A DNA stretch of 64,000 nucleotides, taken from contig OZ320319.1 of assembly GCA_976226885.1 (NCBI GenBank), positions 45,818,001 to 45,882,000 on the forward strand, given 5' to 3'. Each line of letters begins with the position of its first letter. Within the stretch, counting starts at the first letter, position 1. A program made the position numbers and the translations under genes. Below the pieces are notes generated by a model that saw only the letters and a list, made by a program, of their open reading frames with translations, had not been told where the DNA came from and searched no databases. Shown one piece after another: positions 28,172-60,400 of this stretch. This DNA is from Iphione sp. A-MEVVRFRX5 (lineage: Eukaryota).

Positions 28172-28295
28172 CTGTAAGTAGAGATTTTTTACATCGAGAT
28201 GAATGTAAGTGCGCAGTTGATAATTGAAATATACTCATGTTGAATGTGGTCATTTTTTTTACTTGCATACTGAATGTGATGAGAGCATTAGTTAC

Positions 28296-31293: not shown

Positions 31294-31641
31294 TCCTCCC
31301 TCTTAAGGAGATGAGGATCTATAGCTTTGAGGACTATTATAAATCAAAACATGTTTCGTAATTCAAATGTCAAGCTTTAAGATCTTTAAAGTTCATGTTG
31401 TCTTCTCATAGTCTTAGCCATTCATAGGCTCAAGTCCTTAGCCTGCGGGTAATCAGTGTATAAGTTGCTTAAGTAAGAAAACTAATAATATAACTGACTT
31501 TTACGTAAGGATATATGATTAAGTTTGCTTATCACTATAAGAACTAAAATTGGGGTCTGGTAGACTGCCAGATCACCCAAGGCACGTTGGCACAGGGATT
31601 ATTCTGCCCTTATGTGCCAAGTGTCAATGAGGCATCTTCGC

Positions 31642-35725: not shown

Positions 35726-36046
35726 GGCGACTTACTTACTCACTGACCGTGGTTTGTATTGTGACTAACGGGCACAACTGACTAACCAGTGCTGGATTGG
35801 TAAATACAGGTAAAACTTCTGTCTAGCTGTTTTAACAGGGCATAATAATCGTGGAACACTCTCTCAGGGTGGCAGTTACACAGTAGAGTTACTCTTCTTG
35901 GGATAGGAGCTGGGTTGAGCACATGGCATGGCTTCTGGCTTCAGGCCCTCTGCCACACAACAGCCTTTCCTCACTCTCTTAACAGAAGAAATAGAAAAAG
36001 CTTCCTACTCACAGTTTCTTCATGCCCTTCCCAGTCCTTTTACCTT

Positions 36047-36056
36047 GCTGCCACCA
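36047..36056 (-). promoter_or_regulatory. PBS (tRNA-Leu-like, 10 nt)
   Basis: TGGTGGCAGC directly after the 5' LTR. Confidence 0.75.
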
Positions 36057-36171
36057 TGTTGCATTCTCTTAAATGATGCTAGAGTTACTTAAGAGAAGAG
36101 TGATTGAGTTGAGCAGCTTTATTCCATCTTGGATATAGGGCAGAGAGAGAGTACACACAGAGTGATGACAT

Positions 36172-36303
36172 CATCAGATCATCAGCCACACATATCACAC
36201 CCTCTAAATCCTGGATGCAGCTGTGTAGCTTCCTGGCAAAGATCTCTGATGATACGCTTGTCCCGAAAGGCAATCTCAACCATCGGTATCGGCCATGTGG
36301 GGT
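36172..36303 (-). repeat. 132-bp copy of the internal RT segment 33840-33971 replacing the outer end of the 5' LTR
   Basis: One mismatch seen (36264 C vs 33932 T); 10-bp junction microhomology CATCAGATCA. Confidence 0.92.
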
Positions 36304-37470
36304 AGCACAGTGAGTTGGCATAACTAGAGGTCTTTGGTTTAGTTACGACCCCTCTCATATCCCGTCCATGGCACATCCTAGTCGCCTGATCCAGTGGGAT
36401 AAGACCCAATTTGATCTGTTTGTGGATGGCGCAGATAGCCTACCCTTCATCAGCACCAAGTTAGCCACCCTTGCCACGCCAAACTGTCTTTCCAGTCTCA
36501 CAGATGAGTGAAATTCCTTTCCTTGGAGGCATACCGAGCACACCTACTTAGGTGTACCTGTAGGTCCACTACTGCTGCACATGGTAGGGCACTCCAGAGG
36601 GCAGCATTGTATTGAGATACCACCAAGGACTTGAAGAGCAGCAGTCTAGCCCTGAAGGGCAGGAAGCTCTTTGTTCTGCCTACCTTCAGGGCCAAGCCCC
36701 ATGTCTGTCTCTTCACCTCCGGCAACTTTCGCGCATCTTAAGTCTTCCGTCCAGCTTATACCCCAACAGTGAAGTGGTGGCCTCATACTTCAATTGCACC
36801 CCATTAAGAGTCCGGTCAAGTGCTATCCCATGTGCCCTGCCTTGGGTACTATAGGCACACTTGGCCTCACTGAGGACCAAGTTTTCATTCTTACACCACT
36901 TGGATACGGCAGTCAGAGTCAGCATCGCCGTTTGTCACAACCGTAGCAAGTCACGAGCAAAGACCACTACAGACAAGTCGTCTGCATAGATAACCGCTCT
37001 GGTGTCAGCTGGTAGCACGTCCACTACTGTGTTAATGGCTAGATTGAATGCCACAGGGCCGAAAATTGACCCCACTGGCACCCCTTGTTGCAGTATCAGT
37101 TGGGTGGACGACACTCCATTGCAGCAGATGAACTGCCTCCGTTTGCTCAGGTATGACCATATCATCCTTCTAATGCGTGGACCGGCCCCCATGTCCATCA
37201 GTCTCCGGAGGACAGTGGCATGCGCGACCAAGTCAAACGCCTTCTTTACGTCGAATGTTTGGAGGCATGTATTCAGTCCCTTGTTGATAAGATCTTGCAC
37301 CGGTTGGTGAGGCTGACGATGGCTGTCTCCGTCCCTCGGCCTGCTCAGAAACCATGCTGACTGCTAGTTATGGCGCCTTGACCCTCCAGCCTCCGCAATA
37401 GTTCCTTTGTGAACCATCGTTACAAATCTTCCCCGGAATGGGTAGGATTGATACAGGTCGGAATTGTGAA
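36302..37470 (-). mobile_element. CR1/L2-group LINE RT remnant
   Basis: FDVKKAFDLVAH, QGVPVGSIFGP, IYADD; frameshifted; related to the LINE at 50700-52660. Confidence 0.85.
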
Positions 37471-37499: not shown

Positions 37500-38150
37500 T
37501 AGTCATGAAGTGAACTGTTCTCAGTCTCTCATGGAGTAGCTGGCAGTGATGATGGACATGGTCCTATTGGGAATGTGAAGCTGATCTACTCTTACTTCCA
37601 CGTATCATGCCTACAGTGGAACATCCTAATTACGGACACCCTTGGTTCTGCTTCAAATTGTACGCATTTCAGAAGTGCCCTTATTACAGAACTAAGGGTT
37701 ATGTATGGAAATAGAGTAGGTTCTTGTCCAAATCATCTGCATTGTAGAAGCCTCCGCATCTGAGACGTGTCCATGAGGGGACATCACACTGTGTGTGTAT
37801 AGACCCAACAGGGAAGTCGTGGAAGATGAGACAATGATTTAGCACAAGGGCAGGGTGAGATTTAAACAGTATATGCCAGTTAAGGTGACCAAGTGGGGAC
37901 TGAAATGTTGGGGGTTAGCTGATAGCAAAAATGGCTCTCTGTTGCATTTAATACTCTTTTTTGGCAGGGAAGACCATGCTGAGGTGAACATCATTGAAAA
38001 TGTTATCCTGAAGTTGCTAAGGGGAGCTGACGTCTTTAAAAATACTGTACATCTGTATATGGACAATTGTTTCAGCTCTGTTCCTCTTTTTGATAAATTG
38101 AGAGACTTTGGTGTATTTCGCTGTGGCACTGTAAGGCCTATAGTAGGCCT
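37500..38150 (+). mobile_element. piggyBac (PGBD-like) transposase remnant
   Basis: EDETMI*HKGRVRFKQYMPVKVTKWGLKCW...LYMDNCFSSVPLF...CGTVR. Confidence 0.85.
37614..37791. mobile_element. Short Tc1/pogo-type MITE inside the piggyBac remnant
   Basis: TA-CAGTGGAAC...CACACTG ends; internal GGACAC/GTGTCC motifs. Confidence 0.55.
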
Positions 38151-38169
38151 AAGGACACCCTTCTACAAT

Positions 38170-38580
38170 GTAGGGATCACCAATCAAGAGGGAGAAAGAG
38201 GGAAAGAGTCAGAGGGAGGGAGGAATAGAGAAGGAGGGAGAGTGAGAAGGAGGAAGGGAGCGAGGCAGGGAGGGAGGAGAGAGAGACAGGAAGAGAGGGA
38301 GAGCAAGGGAGAGAGTGANNNNNNNNNNNNNNNNNNNNNNNNNNNNNNNNNNNNNNNNNNNNNNNNNNNNNNNNNNNNNNNNNNNNNNNNNNNNNNNNNN
38401 NNNNNNNNNNNNNNNNNNNNNNNNNNNNNNNNNNNNNNNNNNNNNNNNNNNNNNNNNNNNNNNNNNNNNNNNNNNNNNNNNNNNAGGAGAGAGTGAGAGG
38501 GAGAGAAATATGGAGAGAGAGAGAGGGAGAGAGGGCAGGAGGAAGGGAGAGGGATGGGAGCGAGGGAGAGGAGAGAGAGA
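38170..38580. repeat. GA-rich low-complexity tract containing an assembly gap (38319-38484)
   Basis: Direct inspection. Confidence 0.9.
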
Positions 38581-40314: not shown

Positions 40315-40501
40315 TGTTGCGGGCTCCGCTCACCGGAGCCCGCTGTTGGCGGAAATTGTGAAATTGGGGCTCCGCCCGGAGTAGCATTCTGTATATAAGT
40401 CGGGCCGGGCGGAGCTTCGTTGTCATTTGTGTCCTACCCTTAAAGTAATAAACTTCATCAACTGTTATCTGGAAGTCATGTCTCTTCGATCGGGGCGAAC
40501 A
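40315..40501 (+). repeat. 5' LTR (187 bp)
   Basis: TGTT...AACA; TATATAA at 40392, TCATTT Inr-like at 40423-28, AATAAA at 40447-52. Confidence 0.97.
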
Positions 40502-41740
40502 ATTGGTGGCAGCGGTGGGATCCCTGCCCTAGGGGCTGAGGCAGAGGAAGAGGCGGAAGTGGTCAAGCTCCGGGCGGAGTCGGCGGAGCCTGCGGAGCCC
40601 GCCGAGTCAGCGGAGGTCGCCGAGGAGCTGCCGGAGCCCGCCTGGCTCCGCCCGGAACCCGCCACTGACTGGGACGCACAGTCTATGGAGGGGGATCAGC
40701 CTCTGGGTAGCGGGGATGCCCAAACCAGAGATGAGGTGGGGCATGGGGCTGACGAGGAAGAGAGAGAACACGGGGCCCCCACCTCATCCGCCCCACACAG
40801 ATCTAACGAGGACACTGATGACCACCCTCCTCCGGAGGAAGACGAAGGAGAGGGGGAGCCGACCGACCAGGCAGCCGAGCCGCTCTGGACTAGCTTTGTC
40901 CGGGAGCTGAGTTCCGCCCTCCGGCCGGAAGGAGGAAATAAGAGGAGTCTGGTGAAACCTGACACTTACGATGGGAGTACGCCCTTGCGGGACTTTCTAC
41001 AACATTTTGAGCTGGTGGCCCTGGCAAACCGTTGGGGGGCCGGGGAGAAAGCCATCCAGTTGGGCATCACTCTGCGGAAGTCGGCACGGGCGGTCCTACG
41101 GAGTTCGGGGATCGATGTGGAGAAGCCCCGAGCTTACCAGGAACTGGTGGCCGCCCTCACGGAGAGGTTCCAATCCAAGCATCAGACAGACGCATACATC
41201 CAGCAACTGAAGGGGCGTCGGCAGGGGAAGGCCGAGGCCCTAGCGGATCTTGCAGACGAAATTGAGCAATTGGTACAGCTGGCCTACCCTGAGGCGAAAG
41301 GGGCCTGGAAGGACCGGATGTGCCGCGAATACTATGTCGGGGCCCTCAGCAACGAGAAGGTTCGGAAGTGGGTGACCCAGGCCCGAGTGGCAACCTTTCG
41401 TGAGGTGTTGTCAGCATCGCAAGTAGCGGAGTCTTATTATCAGCATAAGTCCGAAAGGGTGGGACCCAAGCGCGTGCATAAGCTGGAAGTGGCCACCGAA
41501 GAGGCTTCGACCAACAAGTCCACCCCCAAGACCGAGGCTACAGCGGCAGGCTTCGAACGGCTGGAGCTCCTGCTTCAACAGTTATTGGCAAGCCAACAAG
41601 GGGCGGAGAAAGAGAATCGCCGGCCGAACAACAAGAAATGCTTCAACTGCGGGGAGCTCGGGCATTTCAAGCGCAACTGTCCCCAGCCCTTGAAGGAGCA
41701 ACCGTCGGGAAACGGGGCAGCGGCCGCCCCTCGCCAGTAG
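40478..41740 (+). CDS. gag: Gag (about 420 aa, one CCHC knuckle)
   Basis: KPDTYDG capsid-like region and CFNCGELGHFKRNC; first AUG after the predicted TSS is 40478 (alternative start 40685). Confidence 0.9.
   Translation: MSLRSGRTIGGSGGIPALGAEAEEEAEVVKLRAESAEPAEPAESAEVAEELPEPAWLRPEPATDWDAQSMEGDQPLGSGDAQTRDEVGHGADEEEREHGAPTSSAPHRSNEDTDDHPPPEEDEGEGEPTDQAAEPLWTSFVRELSSALRPEGGNKRSLVKPDTYDGSTPLRDFLQHFELVALANRWGAGEKAIQLGITLRKSARAVLRSSGIDVEKPRAYQELVAALTERFQSKHQTDAYIQQLKGRRQGKAEALADLADEIEQLVQLAYPEAKGAWKDRMCREYYVGALSNEKVRKWVTQARVATFREVLSASQVAESYYQHKSERVGPKRVHKLEVATEEASTNKSTPKTEATAAGFERLELLLQQLLASQQGAEKENRRPNNKKCFNCGELGHFKRNCPQPLKEQPSGNGAAAAPRQ
40504..40521 (+). promoter_or_regulatory. PBS, tRNA-Leu
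   Basis: TGGTGGCAGCGGTGGGAT is complementary to the tRNA-Leu 3' end (...AUCCCACCGCUGCCA-CCA). Confidence 0.92.
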
Positions 41741-44700
41741 AGAGGGCGGCCAGCCTCCAACCCCATTTGGAAGAACATCTCAGGATGATTCGGCTGTCTT
41801 GTGAGCGGGAGGTCACTCTGGAAGGGGAGAGCGGCCCCGCAACAAACATCACGCTACCTAGTACAATCGACGGTCGGATAGTCCCCTGGTTAGTGGATAC
41901 CGGGGCGTCACTGACCCTGCTGTCGGAGGAAGTCGCCGACACCCTGTCGCTCGGGGAGTTGGAGCCGACAGTGGGGCGGATTTTGTGTGCAGACGGGAAA
42001 CCCCTACGAGTGAAGGGAAGGACGAGGTTGAAGGCGAGTTTTCAAGGGATCGAGTTGGAAGTCAAAGCCTGGGTTGCCCAAATCGACTGCCCCGCCATCT
42101 TGGGGCTGGATACGCTTCGCAAATGGAAAGCACAGGTGGACACGGAGGGGGCCGCGCTGCGGGTGCGGGTCCCCGAGGACAACGGCGCGAGTGGATGCCG
42201 GGCAGAGTTGGCGGAAGATTGCCACCTGGACGGGAGGAGCGCGGTGCAGGCCCCCTTGCGATGGACGGGGCTAGAGACCGACACTGGACCCGTGGTGGTG
42301 GAAGCCTCCCCCGAGTGGGAGGGTCGCTCGGGGATGCTACTGGCACGGACGGTGTGCCAGGCGGGAAGTCAGTCCGGAGTGGCAGAAATAACCAACCCTG
42401 GCCCCGTGGGGCGTCGACTGAGAAAAGGAACCGTTGTCGGCAGGGTCCAGCGGGTGGACGGGCCAGTGCGGGTCGTCCCGGAGAGCGAAGGGGTGGCGGA
42501 CGAAGACGTGGAGCTAGGACCAGCGCTCAGGACCCTGCTGGAGCGCCTGCCACCCATGACTACCGATGAGCGGCAGGGGGTCGAACAGATGCTGCGGCGT
42601 AACGCGCGCTGTTTCCAAGAGGACGGGCAACCGCTTGGGCACACTGACACGGTCCAGCACCGGATCGACGTACAAGGACACGCCCCCATCCGGCAGAGGG
42701 TACGCCGCCTCCCCCCCGCGAAGAAAGCACTAGTACAGCAGGAGGTGAATCGGATGCTGCAGCAAGGAGTGCTAGAGGCCTCTACCAGCCCGTGGGCGTC
42801 GCCCGTGGTTCTGGTCCGGAAGAAGGACCAATCTTGGCGATTTTGCATTGACTACCGCGCCCTTAACCGAGTAACGAAGAAGGATGCCTACCCCCTTCCG
42901 CGGATCGATGAGACACTGGACGCGTTGGAGGGGGCACGTTTCTTCTCGGCGATTGACCTGGCCAGTGGCTATTGGCAGGTAGGAGTGAGACCGGAGGGCC
43001 GAGAGAAGACGGCTGTCTGTACTCCAGGTGGGCTTTACCAGTTCCGGGTCATGCCCTTCGGACTGTGCAATGCGCCCTCCACCTTCGAGCGGTTGATGGA
43101 GGCCGTGCTCCGGGGCCTGGTTGGGCAGTCCTGCCTGGTCTACCTGGACGATGTGATCGTGATAGGGAGGACGGTAGAAGAGATGACCCGCAGGCTCGAT
43201 GACGTCTTCAGCCGCCTGGGGGAGGCCGGGCTTAAAGTAAAACCGCAGAAGTGTCAGCTGTTCCAGGGGGAGGTGGCCTATCTGGGGCACCGCGTGTCGG
43301 AGGAGGGGGTCCAGCCCGACCCTGAGAAGATCCGGGCCATTCAGGAGTGGCCTCCCCCGCGCTGTATCACGGAGTTGAGGAGCTTCATCGGACTGTGCTC
43401 CTACTACAGGAGCTTCGTGGAGGGGTTCGCCATGCTGGCGGCCCCCCTGCACGGACTCTTGGAGAAAGGACAGGAGTATCGCTGGGACGCCGAATGTCAG
43501 CAGGCGTTTGAACAGTTGAAGGAACGGTTGGTGACCGCCCCCGTCTTGGCGTACCCGCGGCCAGAGGGACAGCTAGTGCTGGACACCGATGCATCGGCGG
43601 CTGGGATCGGAGCCGTACTGTCGCAGGAGCAGCAAGGACGGGAACGGGTGTTGGCCTACGCCAGTCGAAGTCTTGCGCGCCCGGAGAAGAACTACTGCGT
43701 CACCCGGAAAGAACTGTTGGCGGTGGTCTTCGGTCTGCGTAAGTTTCGCTCTTATGTTGGAGGGCGAAAGGTGGTAATCCGGACGGACCATAGTTCCTTA
43801 CGTTGGCTATGCAGCTTCAAGGAACCCGAGGGACAGTTGGCCCACTGGCTCGAAGAGGTCCACTGTTATGACTTGGAGGTGATACACCGCCCGGGAAGGA
43901 AACACGGGAACGCTGATGGCCTCTCGCGAGTCAAGTGCCCCCAGTGCGGACGGGACCCGGAAGAGGATCTGCCGACCCTGGGGCAAGTTGCTACGGTGTC
44001 AGTGGCCCCGGCCGCATTGGACTCCTTAGCCCAAGCCCAGAAGGCTGAGCCCGAAGTGGCGGCCCTCATTCGAGCCTGGGAGGCGGAGGAGCCTCTCCCT
44101 GGACTGACTGGTAGTGATTCCCCGGAGGGGAGGTGGCTGAAGAGTGAGTCGCGGCGGTTGAGGATGAAGGACGATCTGCTTTGTCGGCGTTGGGAGGCGG
44201 AGGACGGAACGCTGTACTATCAGGCTTACGTGCCCCAGCCATTGAGATACGACATCTGGCGTGAAGTCCACGCAGGAGCGTTGGGAGGGCATCTCGGCGC
44301 TGAGAAGACAGAAGGTGCCCTTCGCCGGAAATATTGTTGGCCAGGACTCCGACGTGATGTGGGGCGTTGGGTGAAGGCTTGCCGGGAGTGCCAGGAACGA
44401 CAAGATCCAGCTCGCCGACACCGGGCTCCCCTGCAGCTTCGGGTGGCCCCGGCCCCGTGGGAGTTCGTGGCCGTGGACGTGTGCGGCCCCTTCCCCGAGA
44501 CAGAGCGAGGAAACAAGTACATCATTGTGGTGGCGGATCACTTTACGAAGTGGACGGAGGCATTCCCCACTCCGGAAGTCACGGCGGCGAAGACGGCAGA
44601 CGTCCTACTCCGAGAGATCATCTGTCGGTACGGCCCCCCCCGTATTCTTCATTCCAACCAGGGGCGGAACTTCGAGGCGGCGGTAATGCGGGAACTTCTA

Positions 44701-47700
44701 CAGCTGTTGGGCATTCAGCGGTCGCGCACCACCCCATACCATCCCCAGAGTGATGGAGTCGTCGAAAGGTTCAACCGCACTCTCCTAGGAATGTTGGCCA
44801 AGGTAGTCCGAGAAGATCAATCCGACTGGGACCTCCGAGTGCCCTTCGTCCTGGCGGCCTACCGGGCTACCCCGCACTGTACCACCGGGTTCTCTCCGAA
44901 TTGGTTAACCCTACAACGCGAGACTACGCTTCCGGTGGAGTTGATGGTGGGCAGCCCCCGAGACGAGCCCCGATCGGCTTCCGACTATGCCAAGCAGATC
45001 AGGGAGCGCTACATTCAAGGCCACCAGCTAGCCCGGCGTCACCTACAGAAGTCGGCCGAGCGTCAGAAGGATTTGTACGATCAGCGAGTTCGAGAGCAAG
45101 AATTCGACGTTGGCGATCAAGTTTGGGTCTACTCACCAATAAAGAAGAAGGGGCGGTCCCCCAAATTGCAAAGTCGCTGGTTAGGACCGTGGACGGTTCA
45201 AGCCAGGCTCAGTGCTGTCATCTACCGCATCTCTCGAAACCAGAAGACTCGGGTTGTCCACGCCGATCTGCTAAAGAAAGCGGTCTCTCCTAGTTCGGAG
45301 GAAGAAGAAAGACTCGGGCGAGTGTGTGTCGTCACCCTGATGCCGGACGCGGATGCGGCCCCGGAGGGGGCGGGCCCACCTGCTGTGCCCCCGCCCCGTT
45401 GGTACCGCTGTCGACCGAAGACAACGGGCCAGCCGCCGGTGGTTCCCCACAAGAGCACCAGGGACAGCAGGATGCCCCCGCCTCAGCAACGCCCTCCAAT
45501 ACGACGGATCCCCCAAGGCTGGGTGGACTTGGTGGCCCGGGAACTCCGTCTCCTGAGCGACCGGACTTGCCAGGTCCTGCTCCAGTCGCGGGAAGTCGCG
45601 GGACGAAAGACAGGAGAGAAGCCAGGCCCCCGCCCGGGGGCCTACCGCCGGGCATGGCAGAGACTGCGAGGAATCAGGAGGCGATTGCGGAGACAGTATG
45701 GAGGACGCGCGGTACAGCACCTGGTAGAGACCCTCTGGAGGAAGATCGGAGAGAGAAGACATCCCGCTTGGGGTCGACGACAGTTGAAGACGTCGAGCGG
45801 AACTCGCCCGGGGCCCGAGGCGGAGCACGCCCTAACGGGGCGGAGCCCGCCCAGAGCCCGAGCTCCGGGCGGAGATTATACCGCACTCCGCCGCCATCCA
45901 GCCAATCAGAAACAGACGCGGGAAAGTTCGACCAATCAGCGACTGGCGGAGCTAGCCCTGCAGGGATATAAGCTGGCGGCCTTAGAGGGGGCGATTCATT
46001 CCGTCCATCGCCGTGCTCCGCCCACCCAGAGATACTTCCCGAATATTCCCCGCCCGGAATTGAGTACGTCAGCGGAGGTTTCCGCAGAATTCGACCGGAG
46101 TCCGACTAAGTCGCTGCCGGAGCTCGCCGACCAGCGGAGCTCGCCACCTGAAGTCAGCGGAGCTCGCTCGGCGGAGGTCGCCCTACCGGAGCCCGAGAAG
46201 ACCATGACGTCCGGGGGAAGAGCCCAGTATTGCCAGTACTGTGGCTACATCTCTGACAAGCCGGGCAATTTTGATAGACACATGCTAACCCATGGGAAGC
46301 AAGGGTTTGTCCGCCGCTGTCCGGTGCCCCGTTGCCAGGGGGCACACTTCGGCCGCCGGGATGACTTCCGGCGGCACCTGGAGAACAAGCACAAGCAGGA
46401 CGCCGACAACCCCCTCGTGCTGGGCCAGGATGTAGACTTGGAGTTCATCGACCTGGCCAGCGGCCAGAACGTGTCTGTCCCTGAGAGTCGCCGAGAGGAG
46501 TACCAGCGGCAGTTGAAGGTGGAGGCGTATGAACGGGAGAAGGAAGCAGCCATGATTCGGGGGGAGGCCCCCCCACCGCGACCCAAGCTAGCCCGGAAGC
46601 CCCCCCGGGGAAGGAAGGCGTCGGCTGCCGCAGGGCGCCCTCCCCCTCCCCCCCGGGACGACGACCCAGAGGTGGACGAGGACGTGGAGGAAGAGACGGG
46701 AGTTACGGAGGGGCCCCGCCTGCGCCCCCGAGCCGGGCGCGGGGGACAGGTCTCCTCCACCGTGGCCACACCAGGGGCAGGCCGCCCACCAGTCACTCCG
46801 GGTTCCTCGGCCTCAGTAGACATTCCGCTGTTCGGGCTCGACGTGTCACCGGAGGCTCCAGAAGGACGGATCGGCCGCAAGGTCCGCAAGGCTGCGGGGA
46901 AAGCGGCCAGCCGAGGTACCTCAGCAGGGGAGACGGCCGCCGTTCCTACACCAGCGAAGCCGGCCGCGCAGGGGTCCACTTCTGCCGTCTCCACGCCGGG
47001 GGCCGCTCGGGTGCGCGGCCTTCCTCCCACCAGATCCCGACCCGCCGAGTCATCAGGGGAGTGGCCGACCCCCTCCACCCCTGGGAAGGACTTGGACTTC
47101 CAGGCCATGCGGGACGAGGCCGATCGAAGGAAGAGGAGGTACCAGCCGCAGACGTCTCCTGTCACCCCGGCCAGTCTCCCCTCACCCGCGAAGAAGGTCG
47201 CCAACATCACGTCCTCCACGATGTCGCCACTACATCGGGCGGTGATTGCCGCGGGGATTCGAGACCGCACCCCCCAGTCCACCCCCGCCTCCGCTAGTTC
47301 GTCCTACAGCGAAGCGGCACGGGAGCTGGACGCGTGGCTAGGCGAGGAGTGGGAGAACGTGGAGAGGGAGGAGCGGCCCACGGACGTGGTGGTGATTGGG
47401 TCGGATCCAGAGTCCGAGGACGAAACCCAGGTGGAAGACGCTACCGCCGCCTCTGAGCCGCTGGCCGAGCAGCTCAGCGCGAGCCCGGGGACCCCCTGTG
47501 GGCGCATCCACTATGCCCGGCTGGATGTGGCAGGGGGGGCCCCGGCAGATGATGCAGCAGCTGAGGACGTTCCCTTGTCTGAGGGGGAGGCCGCCCTCAC
47601 CCTGGCGGAGCTTGCAGAGGAAGAGCTCCGCCCGGAGCTCCCGGCGATAGAGACTGAACCTGGCGGAGCTCGCCCCGAGCCGGCGGAGCCCGCCCCTGCC

Positions 47701-48723
47701 CCGCCGCCGGAGACCACCACTCAGCCCTCGGAGCCTGGCCGGGCTCCGCCGATGGGGCCCCAACCCGAGGCGCCCGGGCAGCCGCTGACGCCAGCGGAGC
47801 CCGACGCTGGAACTGAGCCTACCCCCCCGGTACTCCCGGGACGGCGCATGGAAGCAGGGGCAGGGGAGACCCTGCCCAAGGAGATCCCCCCGGCACCCCC
47901 GGGACGGCGAGGGGAGGAGCCGGCACCTGTCCAGCCGGACCCTCCCGTGGAGATCCCCCCGGAGCTTCCGGGACGGCGCGCAGCAGACAGGCCAGACGCT
48001 CTGGCCCCTACCGAGGAACTCCCCCCGGGGCCCCCGGGACGGCGAATTGAGGCGGAGCCCGATGCTGGGGCTCCCCCTCAGGATGTCCCCCCGGCACTCC
48101 CGGGATGGCGGATGGATGAAGGGCCCGGGGACGAGGCCCCGGGCCCGGCCCTCCCCCCGGCACTCCCGGGACGGCGACTGCCGGCGACTGGAGGCGGGAC
48201 TGGCGCACCGGCTCAACCCTTGGCTACCAGTACTCCCGTGGGGGACCCCCCCGGAGCGGCCCAACCGCGGATAGGGCCGGCCCTGGCGGGCCCCGACCGT
48301 CGGGCTGAAGTGCGGCCCGGAGCCCGCAGACAGCTCCTGTTGGACCCTGCCACCGTGCCGGTGGCGGTGACCCGTTGGGCGCATGCCCGAGTGGTCACCC
48401 CCAGGACCTCACCCCCTGCCGGGTGGCGTATTGTTACGGCGGAGGGGACTGCCACCGTGACCCCTCAAAGGGACCATATTCGTGCTAGGTTCCGGCAGGG
48501 GGTGCAGTTGCTATTACGGACAGCCGACCCTGTGGATGCGGAGGAGCCGGGGCACTGGCTGCAGGACAGAGGGATTGCCGATCCCAGCCTGGACATCTCT
48601 CAGGTCTCCTCCGAACTGTCCTCTCGCCTATTGGAGCCCGAACGAGTGGAGTTGTCGTTGGAGGAAGAGTTCCAGGTGGTGGCCAGGCCAGTACAGGCCC
48701 CGGCCGCAGCTGCAGAGCGCTGA
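41638..48723 (+). CDS. pol: Pol (PR-RT-RH-IN) with a ~1150-aa C-terminal extension; -1 frame relative to gag
   Basis: LVDTGAS, YLDD, DTDAS, integrase HHCC and D-S(D>N)QG-E region, SH3-like tail ending near 45280; the frame stays open to 48723. Confidence 0.95.
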   Translation: MLQLRGARAFQAQLSPALEGATVGKRGSGRPSPVERAASLQPHLEEHLRMIRLSCEREVTLEGESGPATNITLPSTIDGRIVPWLVDTGASLTLLSEEVADTLSLGELEPTVGRILCADGKPLRVKGRTRLKASFQGIELEVKAWVAQIDCPAILGLDTLRKWKAQVDTEGAALRVRVPEDNGASGCRAELAEDCHLDGRSAVQAPLRWTGLETDTGPVVVEASPEWEGRSGMLLARTVCQAGSQSGVAEITNPGPVGRRLRKGTVVGRVQRVDGPVRVVPESEGVADEDVELGPALRTLLERLPPMTTDERQGVEQMLRRNARCFQEDGQPLGHTDTVQHRIDVQGHAPIRQRVRRLPPAKKALVQQEVNRMLQQGVLEASTSPWASPVVLVRKKDQSWRFCIDYRALNRVTKKDAYPLPRIDETLDALEGARFFSAIDLASGYWQVGVRPEGREKTAVCTPGGLYQFRVMPFGLCNAPSTFERLMEAVLRGLVGQSCLVYLDDVIVIGRTVEEMTRRLDDVFSRLGEAGLKVKPQKCQLFQGEVAYLGHRVSEEGVQPDPEKIRAIQEWPPPRCITELRSFIGLCSYYRSFVEGFAMLAAPLHGLLEKGQEYRWDAECQQAFEQLKERLVTAPVLAYPRPEGQLVLDTDASAAGIGAVLSQEQQGRERVLAYASRSLARPEKNYCVTRKELLAVVFGLRKFRSYVGGRKVVIRTDHSSLRWLCSFKEPEGQLAHWLEEVHCYDLEVIHRPGRKHGNADGLSRVKCPQCGRDPEEDLPTLGQVATVSVAPAALDSLAQAQKAEPEVAALIRAWEAEEPLPGLTGSDSPEGRWLKSESRRLRMKDDLLCRRWEAEDGTLYYQAYVPQPLRYDIWREVHAGALGGHLGAEKTEGALRRKYCWPGLRRDVGRWVKACRECQERQDPARRHRAPLQLRVAPAPWEFVAVDVCGPFPETERGNKYIIVVADHFTKWTEAFPTPEVTAAKTADVLLREIICRYGPPRILHSNQGRNFEAAVMRELLQLLGIQRSRTTPYHPQSDGVVERFNRTLLGMLAKVVREDQSDWDLRVPFVLAAYRATPHCTTGFSPNWLTLQRETTLPVELMVGSPRDEPRSASDYAKQIRERYIQGHQLARRHLQKSAERQKDLYDQRVREQEFDVGDQVWVYSPIKKKGRSPKLQSRWLGPWTVQARLSAVIYRISRNQKTRVVHADLLKKAVSPSSEEEERLGRVCVVTLMPDADAAPEGAGPPAVPPPRWYRCRPKTTGQPPVVPHKSTRDSRMPPPQQRPPIRRIPQGWVDLVARELRLLSDRTCQVLLQSREVAGRKTGEKPGPRPGAYRRAWQRLRGIRRRLRRQYGGRAVQHLVETLWRKIGERRHPAWGRRQLKTSSGTRPGPEAEHALTGRSPPRARAPGGDYTALRRHPANQKQTRESSTNQRLAELALQGYKLAALEGAIHSVHRRAPPTQRYFPNIPRPELSTSAEVSAEFDRSPTKSLPELADQRSSPPEVSGARSAEVALPEPEKTMTSGGRAQYCQYCGYISDKPGNFDRHMLTHGKQGFVRRCPVPRCQGAHFGRRDDFRRHLENKHKQDADNPLVLGQDVDLEFIDLASGQNVSVPESRREEYQRQLKVEAYEREKEAAMIRGEAPPPRPKLARKPPRGRKASAAAGRPPPPPRDDDPEVDEDVEEETGVTEGPRLRPRAGRGGQVSSTVATPGAGRPPVTPGSSASVDIPLFGLDVSPEAPEGRIGRKVRKAAGKAASRGTSAGETAAVPTPAKPAAQGSTSAVSTPGAARVRGLPPTRSRPAESSGEWPTPSTPGKDLDFQAMRDEADRRKRRYQPQTSPVTPASLPSPAKKVANITSSTMSPLHRAVIAAGIRDRTPQSTPASASSSYSEAARELDAWLGEEWENVEREERPTDVVVIGSDPESEDETQVEDATAASEPLAEQLSASPGTPCGRIHYARLDVAGGAPADDAAAEDVPLSEGEAALTLAELAEEELRPELPAIETEPGGARPEPAEPAPAPPPETTTQPSEPGRAPPMGPQPEAPGQPLTPAEPDAGTEPTPPVLPGRRMEAGAGETLPKEIPPAPPGRRGEEPAPVQPDPPVEIPPELPGRRAADRPDALAPTEELPPGPPGRRIEAEPDAGAPPQDVPPALPGWRMDEGPGDEAPGPALPPALPGRRLPATGGGTGAPAQPLATSTPVGDPPGAAQPRIGPALAGPDRRAEVRPGARRQLLLDPATVPVAVTRWAHARVVTPRTSPPAGWRIVTAEGTATVTPQRDHIRARFRQGVQLLLRTADPVDAEEPGHWLQDRGIADPSLDISQVSSELSSRLLEPERVELSLEEEFQVVARPVQAPAAAAER
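41707..41751 (+). promoter_or_regulatory. -1 ribosomal frameshift signal
   Basis: G GGA AAC in the gag frame, 8-nt spacer, stem GGCCGCCC / GGGCGGCC. Confidence 0.8.
45902..46001 (+). promoter_or_regulatory. Predicted internal Pol II core promoter inside pol
   Basis: CCAATCAG at 45902 and 45932, TATAAG at 45967, TCATTC Inr with +1 A at 45998 (31 bp from TATA). Confidence 0.7.
46204..48723 (+). CDS. Putative stand-alone 839-aa C2H2 zinc-finger accessory protein (same frame as pol)
   Basis: First ATG after the predicted internal TSS (accATG); C-x2-C-x12-H-x3-H at 46231-46293 and C-x4-C-x13-H-x4-H at 46318-46392. Confidence 0.72.
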   Translation: MTSGGRAQYCQYCGYISDKPGNFDRHMLTHGKQGFVRRCPVPRCQGAHFGRRDDFRRHLENKHKQDADNPLVLGQDVDLEFIDLASGQNVSVPESRREEYQRQLKVEAYEREKEAAMIRGEAPPPRPKLARKPPRGRKASAAAGRPPPPPRDDDPEVDEDVEEETGVTEGPRLRPRAGRGGQVSSTVATPGAGRPPVTPGSSASVDIPLFGLDVSPEAPEGRIGRKVRKAAGKAASRGTSAGETAAVPTPAKPAAQGSTSAVSTPGAARVRGLPPTRSRPAESSGEWPTPSTPGKDLDFQAMRDEADRRKRRYQPQTSPVTPASLPSPAKKVANITSSTMSPLHRAVIAAGIRDRTPQSTPASASSSYSEAARELDAWLGEEWENVEREERPTDVVVIGSDPESEDETQVEDATAASEPLAEQLSASPGTPCGRIHYARLDVAGGAPADDAAAEDVPLSEGEAALTLAELAEEELRPELPAIETEPGGARPEPAEPAPAPPPETTTQPSEPGRAPPMGPQPEAPGQPLTPAEPDAGTEPTPPVLPGRRMEAGAGETLPKEIPPAPPGRRGEEPAPVQPDPPVEIPPELPGRRAADRPDALAPTEELPPGPPGRRIEAEPDAGAPPQDVPPALPGWRMDEGPGDEAPGPALPPALPGRRLPATGGGTGAPAQPLATSTPVGDPPGAAQPRIGPALAGPDRRAEVRPGARRQLLLDPATVPVAVTRWAHARVVTPRTSPPAGWRIVTAEGTATVTPQRDHIRARFRQGVQLLLRTADPVDAEEPGHWLQDRGIADPSLDISQVSSELSSRLLEPERVELSLEEEFQVVARPVQAPAAAAER

Positions 48724-48740
48724 GTTGTTTACCGTTATGT

Positions 48741-48945
48741 TGGTCAGTACAGACCTCTTTACTCAAAGTAAGGTTTTTCCAGTAATAAGAAGATGGTTCA
48801 CGGATTTGTTGGCTGGTCAGTACAGACCTCTTTGCTCAAGTAAGGTTTTTCCAGTAATAAGAAGATGGTTCACGAATTTGTTGGTTGGTCAGTACAGACC
48901 TTTTTGCCCAAGTAGGGTTCAGCAGTAAGAAGATAGTCGATGGAT
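48741..48945 (+). repeat. 72-73 bp tandem repeat x3 in the element's 3' UTR
   Basis: TGGTCAGTACAGACCT at 48741, 48814 and 48886. Confidence 0.9.
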
Positions 48946-49006
48946 TTATTTAAGATTTATTCAAGTAGTAGTGGCTCAGGGACTGAGCCCTCTTGGGCGG
49001 GGGTAA

Positions 49007-49193
49007 TGTTGCGGGCTCCGCTCACCGGAGCCCGCTGTTGGCGGAAATTGTGAAATTGGGGCTCCGCCCGGAGTAGCATTCTGTATATAAGTCGGGCCGG
49101 GCGGAGCTTCGTTGTCATTTGTGTCCTACCCTTAAAGTAATAAACTTCATCAACTGTTATCTGGAAGTCATGTCTCTTCGATCGGGGCGAACA
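49007..49193 (+). repeat. 3' LTR (187 bp)
   Basis: Identical to 40315-40501 by eye; preceded by GGGCGGGGG PPT. Confidence 0.97.
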
Positions 49194-49739
49194 ATATCAT
49201 CATCTGGTGTCAGGTAGGCCCGTTCTTTACATAGTAGAGAGGTCAGTACGGCCTCTCGGTGAGCCCCATTAGCTGAGAGGTGATGGTTCTTTATACACCA
49301 TACCCAGGTTTCTATGTTGCATAGCAAACTGGTGCAACAGAGGCAGTGGCATCACGGATGTGTAGGGTGAGAGGCCTGCCCTTCCCAAAAGAGCAGCATC
49401 CCTCACACCATCACTGAGACATTGGTTCTTTGCCAATGTCTTGAGTGGTTTCCCAGATTGTCTCAGTTGGCAGTGCAAGGATATCCCACACTGGTCGATA
49501 GCCTCATGGGTGCTACATTGGATTCTGTCTTCTTGTATCCCATGGTTATCTGCTTTGTGATGTTCCTGGGCTGGCTTCCACATGGTTCTGGGGCCGTTTC
49601 CTGAATGCAAAAATTTAATCATGGGTATTAGGGTACCGTAATTAAGTTAAGAACATTCTTAATATTTAATCTGCATTCTTAGATTGTAGGATGTAGTTTT
49701 GTGTCCTGAATGGGGCCCTGAGATTCCCTAAACCCTTTT

Positions 49740-50600
49740 ATGACCCTTACAGGGCTGCCTGATGCTGTCATGGTTCCTGTGTCCATGATGTGGCTGACCA
49801 TGGCTGGCATGGGGCTGCCTATGGCTGACATGGAGCCATCTGTGGTCATTATGGTGTCATCTATGACCACCACAGGACTGTCTTTTGCTGTCATGGTTCC
49901 TGTATCCATAACAGGGCTGGCCATGGCTGGCATGGGGCTGGCCATGGCTGGTATGGGACTGGCCATGGCTGGTACAGGGCCATCTGTGGTCATTATGTTG
50001 CTGTCTGTGACTGTTACCCAGTCACAGACAGCATCATGATGGCCACAGATGGCCCTCTACCAACCATGGCCAGCTCCATGCTAGCCATGGCCAGCCATAT
50101 CACAGATGCAGGGACCATGACAGCAACACACCCTATGACATTCACAGGCAGCACCATGATAGCCAAAGATAGGCCAATGCCAGGCATAGGTAGCCCATGT
50201 TAGCCATGGTCAGGCCATGCCAGCCATGGCCAGCCCAATTATGGACACTGAGACCAAGACAACAAAAGGCAGCCCTGTGACAGTCACAGACAGCACCATG
50301 ATTGCCACAGATGGCCCTATGTCAGCCATTGCCAGTCCTATGCCAGCCAAGGCCAGCCCCATACTAGGAATGGCCAGCCCCATCATGATCACAAGGACCA
50401 TGGCAGCAACAGACAACCCTGTCATGTTCATAGATGGCACCATGATGGCTACAGATGGCCCTGTGCCAGTCATAGGCAGTCCATGGCAGCCATGGCCAGT
50501 CCCATGCCAGCTATGGCCAGCCCCATACCAGCCATGGCCAGCCCCATCATGATCACAGGGACCATGACAGCAACAGACAGTTCTATGATGGTCATAGATG
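49740..50600. repeat. Fold-back minisatellite (21-bp subunits in ~130-150 bp units; orientation flips at 50016)
   Basis: GGCTGGCCATGG units on the left, CCATGGCCAGCC on the right; perfect 15-bp stem 49999-50013/50019-50033. Confidence 0.85.
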
Positions 50601-50699
50601 ACACTACTCTTAATCTTACCCTTCTAGTGAGATTAAATAATGCATGGTTAACTGCTATGCAGGAACACATTTGGGGTGATTAAACAGTGGTACCATGAT

Positions 50700-52660
50700 T
50701 AAAAGTTAATTGTTAATGGTCAGCATAAGAAGACCCCGTGATGGTCCTGTACTGGACCGTGGCTGCGTGGAACTTCTCAAAGACCGCGCCTACTTCTTTG
50801 AGAAATGGCGGAAGGAAGGTTGCATAGACAGCTGGCGAATCTTTAGATTCCTGAACTGCAAAGTGGCAGCTGCCATGAGAAGGAACCAGAAATTTTTCTG
50901 GGAAAACAAGCTAGCTCAAGTGAGAGGTGACACAGCCAAAACATGGTCCGTGCTAAATGAAGCCACAGGCAGAGCGACCACCACCGACAGCCTCCCTGAC
51001 ACAGTTGCGTCGGAAAGGGAGCATGGCGTTTCTCTAGCAACAGCATTTAACAACTATTTTGTCAATGATGTCAATGCGCTAGTGCCAAATCATGCCAATG
51101 GCCCATCCTTTCCAACAAATAAAGCTGGTGTGGGCTTTGAGATAACGCCGCCTTGACCCATTGATGTACGGAACTTGGTCCAAAAAATCAATGTTCACAA
51201 GTCATCTGGGTTGGAAGGCATCCCAACAAAAATCTTGAAGCCGTTCTTCCTACTATGCCCTGAATTCTTGGCCTGGATCTATGCGAGATTTCTCTCAACC
51301 GGCATTTATCCTCAGAGCTGGAAACTAGCCCCTGTGACCCCGGTCCACAAACGGGGTGCAGTAGACGTTCTAGGTAACTACCGGCCGGTTTCAATCTTGC
51401 CCTTGCCGGGCAAGATCTGTGAACACTGGTTCACTGAGAGAATCAGCACCTATGTGGAATGGACAGGATTCCTTGCAGGATGCCAACACGGCTTCAGACA
51501 GGGACGGGGGACGGAGACGGCAATTACATCCCTATTGGGTGAGATTGCCACGCAGATCAATGCCAAAAGCTACATTTGTCTCCTTATGTGTGACTTAAAG
51601 AAGGCGTTCAATCTTGTCCCACATGACTCCATCCTCACACGCCTCAGACAGGCAGGGTTTGGACAGCGAACTATTCAGCTAATTGCCGGGTATCTTGCAG
51701 ACAGGGTCCAGTTTGTGCGTTGTGGGGGCAAGGACTCGGGAGTGCTACCCCTCAAACAAGGAGTCCCCCAGGGGTCCATTTTTGGACCCACAGCATTCAA
51801 TCTGGTGATCAACTCAATCACTGGGGTAATTGGCAATGCATGTCGACCAATACTTTATGCTGACAACCTCACAGTTGTCATAACTGCCAAGGACCTGCTT
51901 CGGTTAAGATGGCGCTCAAATGAGGTCCTACGTTGCATCCAGAGCTGGTGCCTCGATGAAGGCCTGCTGCTGAGTATCCCAAAATGTTCGTATTGCACTG
52001 TGGGGCGCGTGGCCAAGGTCCCACTTGATCTTGAGCTGAACGGCGAGGAGCTAAACCGCCCTGTGAACCCCAAGCTACTCGGATACATCATTGACGGCTG
52101 CCTAAAAATGAGAGTCAGGCTAAAGTAGGTTGTGTCCAAGAGCTGGGCCATGGCCATCCGACTTTCACGACTCAAGAATGTGCTGCCTCTGTCCACGTGC
52201 GAACTGTTGTTCAAAAGTCTGATAATGTCTCTTTTTCACTTTCATGCAGTCACCTGGTTTGGGCTATCTTCTTCTGACTAGATCAGACTCCAGGTGCACT
52301 TGAACCGATGCATAAGACTGAGCCTCCAGATGAACCCTCAACAATCAGCAATGACTATCGCGAGGAGACTGGGAATCCCGCGTATCAAAGACCTGGTCTG
52401 CATGCGTGGGCTAATTGCTGTCCACAACCTGGTCAAGCTGGGCCTTGTGCAGCTTGGTGCACCAGGGAAAACACGCTATACTAATGAGACGCGTGGACTC
52501 CTAACACGTCCGAGAACTTCATTGTTTCGAGCGTCACTCCAGTATGAGGGCGTACGTCGCTGGAACACGCTACCGTCTGAACTGAGGGGCTGCCCTCGAC
52601 TCACTATCAAAACACTTACTAGGTTAACTGTGGACGGTGAACCCACATGGGGTTCCTAGT
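50700..52660 (+). mobile_element. 5'-truncated CR1/L2-group LINE, disrupted RT ORF
   Basis: GNYRPVSILP, QHGFRQGR, DLKKAF, GVPQGSIFGP, LYADN, GVRRWNTLP; internal stops. Confidence 0.9.
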
Positions 52661-57423: not shown

Positions 57424-60400
57424 TGTAGAGAGAGGAGCAGATCTGAGCTGGTGGTAAACAGGAAGTGCTTTATTGAACCTCTATGTCAGGAGAGTTCCAA
57501 AATAGTGATAAAGATCGCTATCCTCTACATCTCCCTTTTTTTAAAAAAAACTTAAAATGTTTAAGAAAGTTCTTTAAATTTCGTAAGATTTGGAAAGAGT
57601 CCTTTAAGAGTCTTTTCAAATTGAAGAAATGTCTGTAATGGACTTTACATGTGTGAATAGTCTTTGAGCAACTATTGTTGAGAAGTAAAAGTGTGATAAT
57701 CAAAACAGTAAAATTAACTTGCATAATAAGGAAATCATTGCAATAGACTGTGGCTCATTCCTATGATGTTACTGGCATTATTCTGGCCATTGTGTAACAT
57801 CTTGTTGTTACTTTGTAACATAGTCTTTCGTCAAGTATGCTGGTGGTCGGGATGTGTGACCAGATCTCATGACTGCTCTCGGCTTGCCTGAAGGGGTCTT
57901 GGTTCATGACTGGCACAATCACTGGCTGTGGTGGTACAGGGCTTGATTGGTGAGGTGTGTCAAGCCTTTCCTGAGTCTCCCTTAAGTGGTGACGGTTTCG
58001 CCATAACAGCTGGTCTTTGGCATAGACTATATAGGAGCAAGGACCAACCTTTTCTTGTACTGTGCCTAGAGTCCAGACAGAAAATGTTTGTGGTTTTGCT
58101 TGGACTCCCACCGGTTGTCCGATTGTCAACTGTGGCAATGGCTTGCGGCTGTGGTCATAGCTACGCTTGTTCTTCTGTTTCCTCTTAGCCAGCTTTTCAG
58201 GTACAGTGTTGATGATGTGAGGCATATACTTTGTCTTGGCTGCAGGTAGTAGTGACCTGGTCTGTCTGGATATGAGTCACTGCGGGACTGGAGTCCAGGT
58301 CTTGGGATGGTGTGTTGCGTTGTTCAAGCAGCATGATGTAGATGTCTGTCTTGTTCTTTTTCGCCCTTTTCATCAGATTTTTGACAACTTTTACTGTTGC
58401 TTCCGCTCTGCCATTACCTTGTGGATGATGTGCTGAGCTGGCGATGTGTTTGAACTCGTGTTTCCTTGCGAACTCTGCAAACTCACTCGACGCGTAGTTA
58501 GTTCCATTGTCGCTGATGAGGACTGATGGGATTCCATGTATACTGAAGTTTCGCTTTAGGAACTTGATCACTGACTTCGACGTCATGTTTGGTAGCTCAT
58601 CAACATCGATTAAGTCACTGTAGTGGTCAACAACCACAACGTAATGTCTTCCTTCAAGCTCAAAACAATCTGAGCTCAGAATCTGGTAGGGATAATTTGG
58701 AATTGGATGACTCATCATTGGTTCTTTCTGTTGGTTCACGGCTGACTCACAACAGATACTGCACTGCCCAACAGTATCTGTGACTTCAGTGTTCATCCTT
58801 GGCCAGTAGATGACACCACAGCAGTGACGAAGGGTTGCTTGAATCCCTTGGTGAGAGGCATGTGCCTTCTCAATCATCTCAGCTCGCATGTCTCAGGGAA
58901 TGATCACGCTGGTACCACGGTACAGGAATCCACCACTGCATGCAAGTTCATCTCGTTAAGGCCAGTATTCACGCACGGCCTGGGAAACAGCTTGTTTGTC
59001 ATCAGGCCATCCAACGTTGATGACATTTGCTAACTGCTGTATGACTACATCCTTGGCTGTGTAGAGGCAGATCCTACTCAACGTTTTGCTGCTCACAGAC
59101 ACATCAAGTGAGCTGTCTGTGGTCTCCAACTCAGTGTAAATAGAGTCTTCAGTGCCCAACTGGTAGACTAGGCACTCTGTGTCAACATGCCCTGGTTGCA
59201 ATGGAAGAAAGGCCCTGCTCATGACATCAGAGACAAACATTTCTAGACCCTTTTTGTAGCAGACTGTCAGGTCACATTTCTGTAGACGCAGTCTCATCCT
59301 TTGCAGGTGCTTTGGAGAAGTAAGAATCGACTTTTTGAAGATCATCTTGAGGGATTTGTGATCACTCAACATGGTGACGTGCTTCCCTAAGACATAATTG
59401 TCAAACTTCTCCAATGCAAAGCAGATAGCTAGGCATTCCTTCTCCAGCTGACAGTAATTCTGCTCAGTCTTCGACAATGCTCTGCTGGCAAAACACATGG
59501 GCTGTCCTCCTTGCATCAGCACTGCACCCAGACCTACTGAGCTTGTATCGCACTCAACAGTGACTGGTTGTGACATGTCGTAGTAGCATAGAATGGGTGC
59601 TTCTGTGATCATCTTCTTCACTCTTTGAAAGGCTGTCTCATGTTGCGGTAGCCACTCAAAGGGACGGTCCTTGTCGCATAGATGTTGCAGAGGTTCGCAG
59701 ATCTCTGATAACTTATTGAGAAACCTGCCCAAGTAGTTGGTCATGCCAAGTAAACGTTGTACAGCTTGAACATTTTCGGGCTGAGGCATCTCAACAATTG
59801 CCCTGACTTTCTCAGGATCAGGAGAAAGCCCTTTTCTGTCAATAACATGTCCCATGTATTCTACTGAGGTGAGCTTGAACTTTAGCTTCCTTTTGTTTAG
59901 CTTCAGGTTGCACACTCTGGCTCTCTCAAGGAGTTTGATGAATGTGACATCATGTTGGCGAACGGCTTCTTCATAGGTGTCACCTGATCCATAGATGAGG
60001 ATGTCATCGGGGTGACTTCAATGTTGTTGAGGCCCTCAAGTTTCTCGGTGAGTTGTCGGCCAAACTCTTCTGGGGCTGAACTGATGCCAAATGGCATGCG
60101 TAGCCATCGATACCTTCCTTGTGGAGTCCAAAAAGTAGTAAGATAACTAGACTCTTCATCAAGTTCGACTTGCAAAAATCCATCTTTTGCATTGGCCACA
60201 CTGTACACTTGTGACTTTCCAAGGCGGGGTGCAACATCTTCGATGGTCCTCATCGGAAAGTGTGGTCTGCGTATTGCCTTATTCAGGTCTTTCGGGTCTA
60301 TGCAGATTCTCAGCTTCCCAGGTTTCTTCACAGTCACCATGTTGCTGATCCATCTGGTTGGCTCAGTCACTTTTGCGATGGTCCCATCTTGTTCTAGTTG

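Follow-up and report, generated by a model that had tools for sequence, protein, structure and literature searches.

The 64,000-nucleotide (nt) stretch analysed here, called the window throughout (positions 45,818,001 to 45,882,000 of contig OZ320319.1, forward strand, assembly GCA_976226885.1 of Iphione sp. A-MEVVRFRX5), comes from a CpG-depleted host genome of 1.18 Gb. At 40315-49193 it carries a young Gypsy retrotransposon, whose pol frame continues far beyond the integrase into a protein with C2H2 zinc fingers. The element is flanked on both sides by an ATAT target duplication, and its two long terminal repeats (LTRs; 40315-40501 and 49007-49193) are identical, as the initial annotation of the locus had stated, across 187 nt, and have TG...CA ends. 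We fetched 79 copies of the subfamily of this element (A) and 20 copies of subfamilies B/C. The features of the element are as follows, where dN/dS is the ratio of nonsynonymous to synonymous divergence.

40315..40501, plus strand: 5′ LTR, 187 nt, TG...CA ends, same as the 3′ LTR.
40370..40381, no strand: inverted dyad CTCCG-NN-CGGAG in U3, within a 17-nt block identical between subfamilies A and B/C.
40394..40428, plus strand: LTR core promoter, with TATAAG at 40394 and an initiator (Inr)-like TCATTT, its A 31 nt downstream.
40478..41740, plus strand: gag, with its ATG inside the LTR and a CCHC knuckle.
40504..40521, plus strand: primer-binding site, complementary to host tRNA-Leu.
41482..45279, plus strand: pol, encoding protease, reverse transcriptase (RT), RNase H and integrase with a C-terminal p58/SH3-like domain (Pfam).
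41707..41713, plus strand: GGGAAAC heptamer, in a register that fits a -1 gag-pol frameshift, conserved in subfamilies B/C.
45313..45333, plus strand: acidic patch followed by LGRV-x-V, resembling the RNase H/integrase junction.
45502..45777, plus strand: Arg-rich block, under protein-level selection (dN/dS 0.15).
45768..46203, plus strand: internal promoter-like zone within the open frame, where CGGAG occurs 14 times, with both strands and each of the three frames represented.
46204..48723, plus strand: finger protein of 839 amino acids (aa) in the pol frame, starting at the first ATG (ACCATG) beyond the internal TATA.
46231..46293, plus strand: C2H2 finger 1, C-x2-C-x12-H-x3-H, helix KPGNFDR (K-1, G2, N3, R6).
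46318..46392, plus strand: C2H2 finger 2, C-x4-C-x13-H-x4-H, helix RRDDFRR (R-1, D2, D3, R6).
46483..46557, plus strand: charged helix after the fingers (AlphaFold model).
46600..47800, plus strand: disordered regions, acidic and rich in Ser/Thr-Pro, that contain conserved blocks (dN/dS 0.11-0.14).
47803..48177, plus strand: Pro-rich PPxxPGRR repeats with a period of about 22 aa, whose copy number changes in frame among subfamilies.
48304..48681, plus strand: conserved C-terminal domain, ending in LSLEEEF, of no known family.
48742..48960, plus strand: repeats of the 3′ untranslated region, in units of about 73 nt, 2-6 per copy among copies.
48992..49193, plus strand: G-rich polypurine tract and 3′ LTR (49007-49193).

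The LTRs and target duplication, the order protease, RT, RNase H and integrase, the CCHC gag, the tRNA primer site and the polypurine tract are those of a Ty3/Gypsy element, and no chromodomain, as expected of a chromovirus, was scored in a Pfam scan at E up to 0.1. In that scan pol shows protease, RT, RNase H, integrase zinc-binding, integrase core and Integrase_p58_C, the last of which ends at codon 1266 (nt 45279). A matching 4-bp target duplication flanks 61 of 66 full-length copies, and three of the four fetched genome matches to the primer-binding site are tRNA-Leu genes. The gag ATG lies at the 3′ end of the LTR (40478-40501, MSLRSGRT), so that the primer-binding site is translated, an arrangement conserved in subfamilies B/C and in several other lineages. 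Gag and pol would be joined by -1 frameshifting at GGGAAAC.

The initial annotation had proposed that the frame stays open past the integrase to 48723, encodes two C2H2 fingers and is not an env, and on these points it was right. The single stop-free frame 41482-48723 comprises 2,413 codons, 1,147 of them beyond the integrase, and AlphaFold models both fingers as beta-beta-alpha units with a helix after them (pLDDT 70.6). In its spacing and in its contact positions (-1, 2, 3 and 6) finger 1 (codons 1584-1605) is a canonical C2H2 finger, with a Pfam zf-H2C2_5 score of E 2.2e-5 that lies under the curated cut-off; finger 2, with x13, is one residue longer than the canonical length and has no Pfam score, and keeps the aromatic-x5-hydrophobic-x2-His spacing. 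The solved structures closest to the finger model are DNA-binding fingers, such as those of BCL11A and CTCF, with weak E-values (Foldseek returned nothing at E 0.001). No homologue of the finger region was found at E 0.001 among 111 candidates; in the profile search, the 10 matches examined of the 150 listed were generic, mostly multi-finger C2H2 proteins with little covered outside the fingers, and the Atlas search likewise gave generic C2H2 clusters. The extension has no transmembrane segment (the highest hydropathy over 19 residues is 0.76), only two N-x-S/T sites and no env family in the Pfam scan, and the hydropathy maximum rules out an env identity.

Other parts of the extension are less easily named. 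The charged helix that follows the fingers may possibly serve in dimerisation. The terminal domain had been described as compact; it is indeed conserved (dN/dS 0.11), but a compact fold is not borne out, with a model pLDDT of 47.8, a best VIA Z of 4.3, low Atlas recognition and no fold assigned. Just behind the integrase, the LGRV-x-V motif is likely a protease site that would release the extension. A junction-like motif was recognised by eye at this position in eight of 15 lineage representatives, which suggests that the extension is separated from the integrase. The Arg-rich block would be made only as part of Pol, because it lies upstream of the internal promoter described below, and it is absent from a lineage with a spacer of just 79 codons between integrase and fingers (lineage D).

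Selection on the extension can be read from the copies. A single frame of at least 2,340 aa is present in 13 of the 79 A copies and an intact finger open reading frame (ORF) in 29; 30 of the 33 youngest copies, 50 of 76 overall and nine of 17 B/C copies have an open junction between integrase and fingers. Among the first 39 copies all 18 stops are private, as are all frameshifts except one. For variants common to at least four of these copies (n = 39), the ratio of nonsynonymous to synonymous polymorphism (pN/pS) is 0.05 in core pol, 0.18 between integrase and internal TATA, 0.22 from TATA to the Met of the finger protein and 0.15 in the finger protein itself. Between subfamilies, comparison with the natural intact copy L080 gives a dN/dS of 0.25 for the whole extension (1,092 codons). 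The fingers alone have 0.20, the Arg-rich block 0.15 and the C-terminal domain 0.11, all rough values given that synonymous sites are near saturation. These figures indicate that the extension is under purifying selection. The initial annotation had taken it for part of a working element, naming scattered stops in other copies or neutral evolution as the signs to the contrary, and its view withstood this check. A neutrally evolving captured fragment is ruled out by dN/dS, pN/pS and the absence of shared stops, and a chance frame or assembly artefact by the long-frame copies and the open junctions of the youngest ones.

The fusion extends well beyond this subfamily. Fused finger extensions occur in about a dozen lineages of the genome, with integrases 54-79% identical, and many more lineages have pol frames of 2,300-2,740 aa. 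The finger-fused lineages form one branch with 99% support against three outgroups, and lie apart from the SCAN/integrase-before-RT pols on a quick integrase tree. In 44 elements picked for long frames the finger pair is fused to pol in 42, the other two having a broken finger in one case and no usable 5′ end in the other. The spacers between integrase and fingers, of 79-546 codons, are free of stops in the pol frame in all 15 representatives, and either of the other frames has 3-20 stops, which argues that the fusion is kept and not accidental. Two side observations concern the turnover of these frames. Lineages H and I (L228/L231/L232 and L229/L230/L233) have near-identical LTRs and integrases and differ in the promoter zone and finger region, which suggests recombination or a fast turnover of the extension; and a 3,444-codon open frame at G000:C2:83937515-83942569, with two integrase matches 4.5 kb apart, is likely an in-frame internal duplication.

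Within the open frame, just ahead of the fingers, lies a second promoter-like array, recognised, as in the LTR, by the TATA and Inr consensus of core promoters. It comprises a dyad at 45863-45874, CCAATCAG at 45902 and 45932, TATAAG at 45967 and an Inr-like TCATTC with its A at 45998. The conserved residues immediately upstream of the fingers trace to these DNA words, namely CCAATCAG twice, 30 nt apart, followed by TATAA[AG]. Compared with pol, where synonymous divergence is about 2 or more, the CCAAT/TATA zone has values of only 0.6-0.7, and dN/dS rises there to 0.74-1.0, which points to constraint on the DNA rather than on the protein. The distance from TATA to the Inr-like TCATT is 31 nt both in the LTR and at the internal site of this element, the Inr word not being preserved in B/C, and TATAA[AG] occurs on the plus strand of the element only three times, in the two LTRs and at 45967. 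The cassette is present in 77 of 79 A copies and 19 of 20 B/C copies, and in 74 of those 77 and 18 of those 19 the first ATG after it is the Met ahead of finger 1. A TATA-like site separates integrase from fingers in 16 of 22 lineage representatives, and in 14 of the 16 the first ATG after it is in frame. This strong sequence signature is likely that of an internal promoter of the finger protein; the cassette, the ATG of its own and the separate ORF found in distant relatives together indicate that the finger protein has a gene of its own.

What such a protein might bind can be predicted from its helices. C2H2 fingers lie antiparallel to the DNA that they contact. In the accessible text of one study, GCG is listed as the target of the engineered module RSDDLVR, and GAG as that of RSDNLVR (PMC5260015). 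Finger 1 is thus predicted to read GAG and finger 2 GCG, so that the pair would recognise 5′-GCGGAG. In the LTR and, separately, in the internal zone of three subfamilies, CGGAG ranks first or second of all 5-mers, and it is not enriched in the RT core. Counts over LTR, leader and internal zone are 26 versus 5.3, 34 versus 5.5 and 25 versus 4.5 in the three subfamilies, and the internal zone alone holds 14 against 4.5 under synonymous shuffling (P 5e-5). One GCGGAG sits between TATAAG and the Inr-like TCATTT of the LTR core promoter, and seven CGGAG words fall in the first 300 nt past the 5′ LTR. The occurrence of the word on both strands rules out an RNA-level motif, and its occurrence in all frames, with the synonymous shuffle, rules out a protein-level origin. 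The code prediction and the repeated word were noticed together before testing, so that this first match was not blind and the lineages found later make the fairer comparison.

In those lineages the word shifts with finger 1. Finger 2 has R-1/D3/R6 in all 22 representatives. The triplet after GCG is GAG in seven of eight members of one group with R, K or H at -1 (lineage D, with helices RKDNLKR and RKDDLRR, has eight GCGGAG in U3), GCA in the U3 of five elements with Q or L at -1, and GCT in two H-1 elements of another clade. No GCG array is present in L256 and L257, two elements in which finger 1 no longer has N3 and R6; their finger 1 helix is ELEGMYE, and TGCA/TGCT repeats take the place of the array in U3. 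Unbiased 6-mer ranks concur for most lineages. In A, CGGAG is followed by C at 18 of 26 sites, whereas in B/C it is followed by T (24 of 34 sites and 18 of 25), which is one contrast. The second triplet therefore appears to shift with finger 1 across lineages (GAG, GCA, GCT or lost), misfits included.

Those misfits, with several other observations, weigh against a protein that reads its own element. A middle A would be expected from N3, a residue that the GCA and GCT lineages have nonetheless retained; lineage E combines several triplets (GTT 12, GTC 9, GAG 6, GAA 5), and L251-L255 are mixed as well; H at -1 pairs with G in B/C but with T in L242/L248; and the first base is C rather than G in eight of the 26 sites of this element. 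A CGGAG excess is also seen in two other pol windows (z 3.2 and 2.9), the lineages are related and so offer few contrasts, the representatives were picked for long open frames, and six of the 22 have no TATA-like site. Seven of the 26 sites here, and 11 of 34 in L080, are GGGCGGAG, which we take to be the GC box of host Sp/KLF-type factors. One may hence ask whether the arrays are simply sites for host Sp/KLF and NF-Y factors, the finger protein binding elsewhere and the code match being a coincidence. GGGCGGAG and CCAATCAG are both, we presume, common host promoter words, Sp/KLF fingers share the helix type that reads GCG, and the code misfits also count in its favour. We nevertheless regard this account as very unlikely, since 19 of the 26 sites lack the GGGCGG core, the word varies with finger 1 among lineages of one and the same genome, and a single host factor would not track the change of the base that follows CGGAG between A and B/C.

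The fusion to Pol invites another explanation, in which the fingers act within Pol, holding the LTR ends of the complementary DNA (cDNA) for nuclear import or integration or steering the integrase to host sites, and the internal promoter is secondary. The nearest database integrases, 41-46% identical, include chromodomain pols. Sister lineages carry chromodomain, PHD or OTU domains (P0001, P0004 and P0012 carry PF00385), a setting that suits such a role, as do the motif-rich LTR ends and the fusion kept open in all 15 representatives across spacers that cannot be aligned. The flanks of 66 insertions contain just 13 CGGAG in 38.8 kb, or 0.34/kb against a host background of 0.30/kb in the window, and the only target preference is the central TA of the 4-bp duplication (NTAN/ATAT). 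Motif-directed choice of targets within 300 nt is thereby ruled out, and this lack of enrichment makes a targeting appendage the weaker reading. Motif clusters around the internal promoter would be needless for a role at cDNA ends, and the junction-like motif in eight of 15 representatives and the unfused gene of relatives also speak against one, so that we judge it decidedly unlikely. The initial annotation had likened the extension to integrase appendages such as the chromodomain; the fusion to Pol stands, and the likeness is incomplete in view of the promoter-like cassette and ATG, the junction-like motif and the separate ORF of relatives. Gypsy elements with such additions (chromoviruses, PHD/OTU pols) share with this one the LTRs, target duplication, primer site, gag and pol order, whereas the addition here has 1,147 aa, C2H2 fingers and its own cassette and ATG, and the words that it matches lie in the element rather than at insertion sites.

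Methylation offers a further possibility. Private CpG transitions run at about five times the non-CpG rate, which indicates that the element copies are methylated. In Arabidopsis, the VANC proteins of VANDAL DNA transposons recognise short, high-copy motifs in a family-specific manner, according to the accessible part of a 2019 review that counts only three transposon-encoded anti-silencing mechanisms, all of them from plants (PMC6719617). The element under study likewise seems to encode an accessory protein matched to a word that is short, family-specific and present in high copy within its own family. It differs in being a class I element of an animal-type genome, in its C2H2 fold, in the concentration of its motifs at promoters and in showing no sign of protected CpGs. 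A VANC-like factor that binds these motifs and removes or blocks DNA methylation of its own family would agree with the CpG contained in the motif, with the methylated copies and with clustering of the VANDAL kind. However, CpG decay, an indirect and time-averaged measure, is equal in LTR, leader and internal promoter (0.0195) and in the body (0.0206; p 0.41, private mutations), with no lasting protection visible. A first count had looked lower at the promoters, and the gap vanished once private mutations alone were counted. We consider this explanation most improbable, while an effect of this type that is transient, or confined to a few source copies, may exist.

Finger genes behind the integrase are less rare than had been implied and occur widely across this region of the Gypsy tree. 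Among 43 distant metagenomic Gypsy loci that leave space behind the integrase, 21 (including three near-duplicate pairs) have a separate ORF that begins with a finger, against none of 43 on the reverse strand, and five of 120 database pols carry an in-frame finger tail by pattern (P0005, P0008, P0023, P0033 and P0037). As in the present element, these distant ORFs start with Met after the integrase and place a C2H2 or C2HC finger first, and several of the elements have motif arrays upstream of a TATA. They differ in having mostly one finger and 140-620 aa, in the splice-acceptor-like sequence often found ahead of them (eight of 21, by a crude pattern) and in lacking sequence similarity to this extension. 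In the quick integrase tree, which was restricted to metagenome and database rows, finger ORFs appear dispersed among several clades, and a single origin is neither established nor excluded by the sequences. Their motif arrays add further points against self-recognition, being not significantly stronger with a finger ORF than without one (p 0.10, with many contigs lacking LTRs) and mostly containing GGA whatever the helix. Among individual loci, L095, L104, L107, L111, L122 and L148 have dense arrays of short words upstream of TATA (GATGA occurs 27 times in L148), L122 has an ACCGGA word both in the LTR region and upstream of its third ORF, and the third ORFs of L113 and L143 lack a finger and show, by eye, the helical domain of their neighbours' finger ORFs. 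No relative of P0033 was found in viral contigs. The Gypsy pol P0016, whose tail looks macro-domain-like by eye, bears the label of a Klebsiella protein at its source, which is likely contamination.

On balance, and with moderate confidence, we favour a protein that regulates its own element, probably as a transcriptional activator, made from the internal promoter under feedback and also delivered within Pol. The finger protein would bind the (G/C)CGGAG clusters of the LTR, leader and internal promoter and most likely activate transcription. By one route, transcription from the internal CCAAT/TATA promoter would begin near 45998 and yield an RNA for the 839-aa protein; through the sites around this promoter, positive feedback would set in ahead of any activation of the LTR. 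By a second route, the same protein would be produced at low level as the end of Gag-Pol through -1 frameshifting and then packaged, and the extension, likely cut off behind the integrase, would be delivered with the cDNA, leaving the new copy primed for expression. We prefer activation to repression for a single reason, namely that the tail is disordered, acidic and Pro-rich. The converse, in which the same sites are bound by a repressor, or by a dual activator and repressor, so that the element controls its own copy number, accommodates all of the binding evidence as well; sites between the LTR TATA and Inr and throughout both 5′ leaders could even block initiation when bound. Yet most LTR sites form upstream arrays of the type typical of enhancers, as with the eight GCGGAG in the U3 of lineage D. 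The tail ends in an acidic-hydrophobic motif, the Pfam scan of the element proteins scored no repressor domain, and the families with the finger protein are young and numerous. Self-repression thus seems unlikely to us.

The activator reading has its closest parallel in the foamy viruses, where the regulator Tas (Bel-1) is laid out with its internal promoter in the same way as the finger protein with its promoter-like cassette, as far as the accessible part of the source goes (PMC3185757). There is no homology between the two, and no spumavirus family was scored in the Pfam scan; the protein described here has C2H2 fingers and is also fused to Pol, its promoter lies in the pol extension and not in env, and activation, demonstrated for Tas, is here only inferred. 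A Gypsy-type precedent, the Oikopleura elements Tor3b/4b, transcribes its third gene from an internal promoter in the accessible account (PMC4402516), but that gene encodes the membrane glycoprotein Env, whereas this one has no transmembrane segment and lies in the pol frame. Discussions of C2H2 proteins usually cast them as repressors that the host directs at transposons (accessible text of PMC10547256), and neither that text nor the accessible part of an accessory-domain review (PMC6338049) describes such an extension. A word search of the accessible text of mollusc and annelid Gypsy surveys (PMC6238403, PMC8556966) found no mention of zinc, and the gag knuckle is the only zinc mention in that of the Troyka paper (PMC12440569). 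We found no description of such an element in the open literature, a scope that leaves aside Repbase, Dfam, subscription journals and supplements.

Other mobile elements share the window. A Gypsy-type element on the minus strand at 31150-36307 encodes RT, RNase H and protease (33018-35222) and an integrase core (31642-32571), and has oddly arranged repeats of 125 and 136 nt (pairs 31150/36057 and 33840/36172); a third, broken one, also on the minus strand, occupies 57424-62346, with 106-nt terminal repeats that are 95% identical. An ORF with DUF3504 and tyrosine recombinase domains at 28128-29066 on the minus strand is presumably Crypton-like. Fragments of a DDE_Tnp_1_7 (piggyBac-like) transposase and of a non-LTR-type reverse transcriptase lie at 37843-38496 and 51157-52128, respectively, and a GC-balanced tandem array with long imperfect inverted repeats follows just downstream of the element (49739-50604).

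LTR retrotransposons are usually assumed to borrow the transcription factors of their hosts. The element described here likely represents a new form of Gypsy element, one that would encode its own transcription factor, with pairs of fingers and motifs that differ between lineages, and its finger extension would resemble, by analogy, the self-regulation of complex retroviruses. A broader scenario, which we hold tentatively and with slightly more doubt than belief, is that a whole Gypsy radiation has become ‘complex’ in the retroviral style, each lineage making its own C2H2 transactivator from an internal promoter and also shipping it in Pol to switch on new copies, with fingers that co-evolve with the LTR arrays in a private circuit. 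In that scenario, the finger-initiated third genes across this part of Gypsy would form a class of transcription factors, encoded by the elements themselves, that has gone unnoticed. If the activator reading is true, a retrotransposon whose finger protein recognises the element's LTR would constitute a Tas-like circuit outside the retroviruses. The dozen or so lineages of this one genome, with differing finger-1 helices and LTR words, would offer a natural dataset for the co-evolution of fingers and DNA, and the long ‘pol’ frames and small post-pol ORFs annotated in Gypsy elements may in fact be regulator genes.

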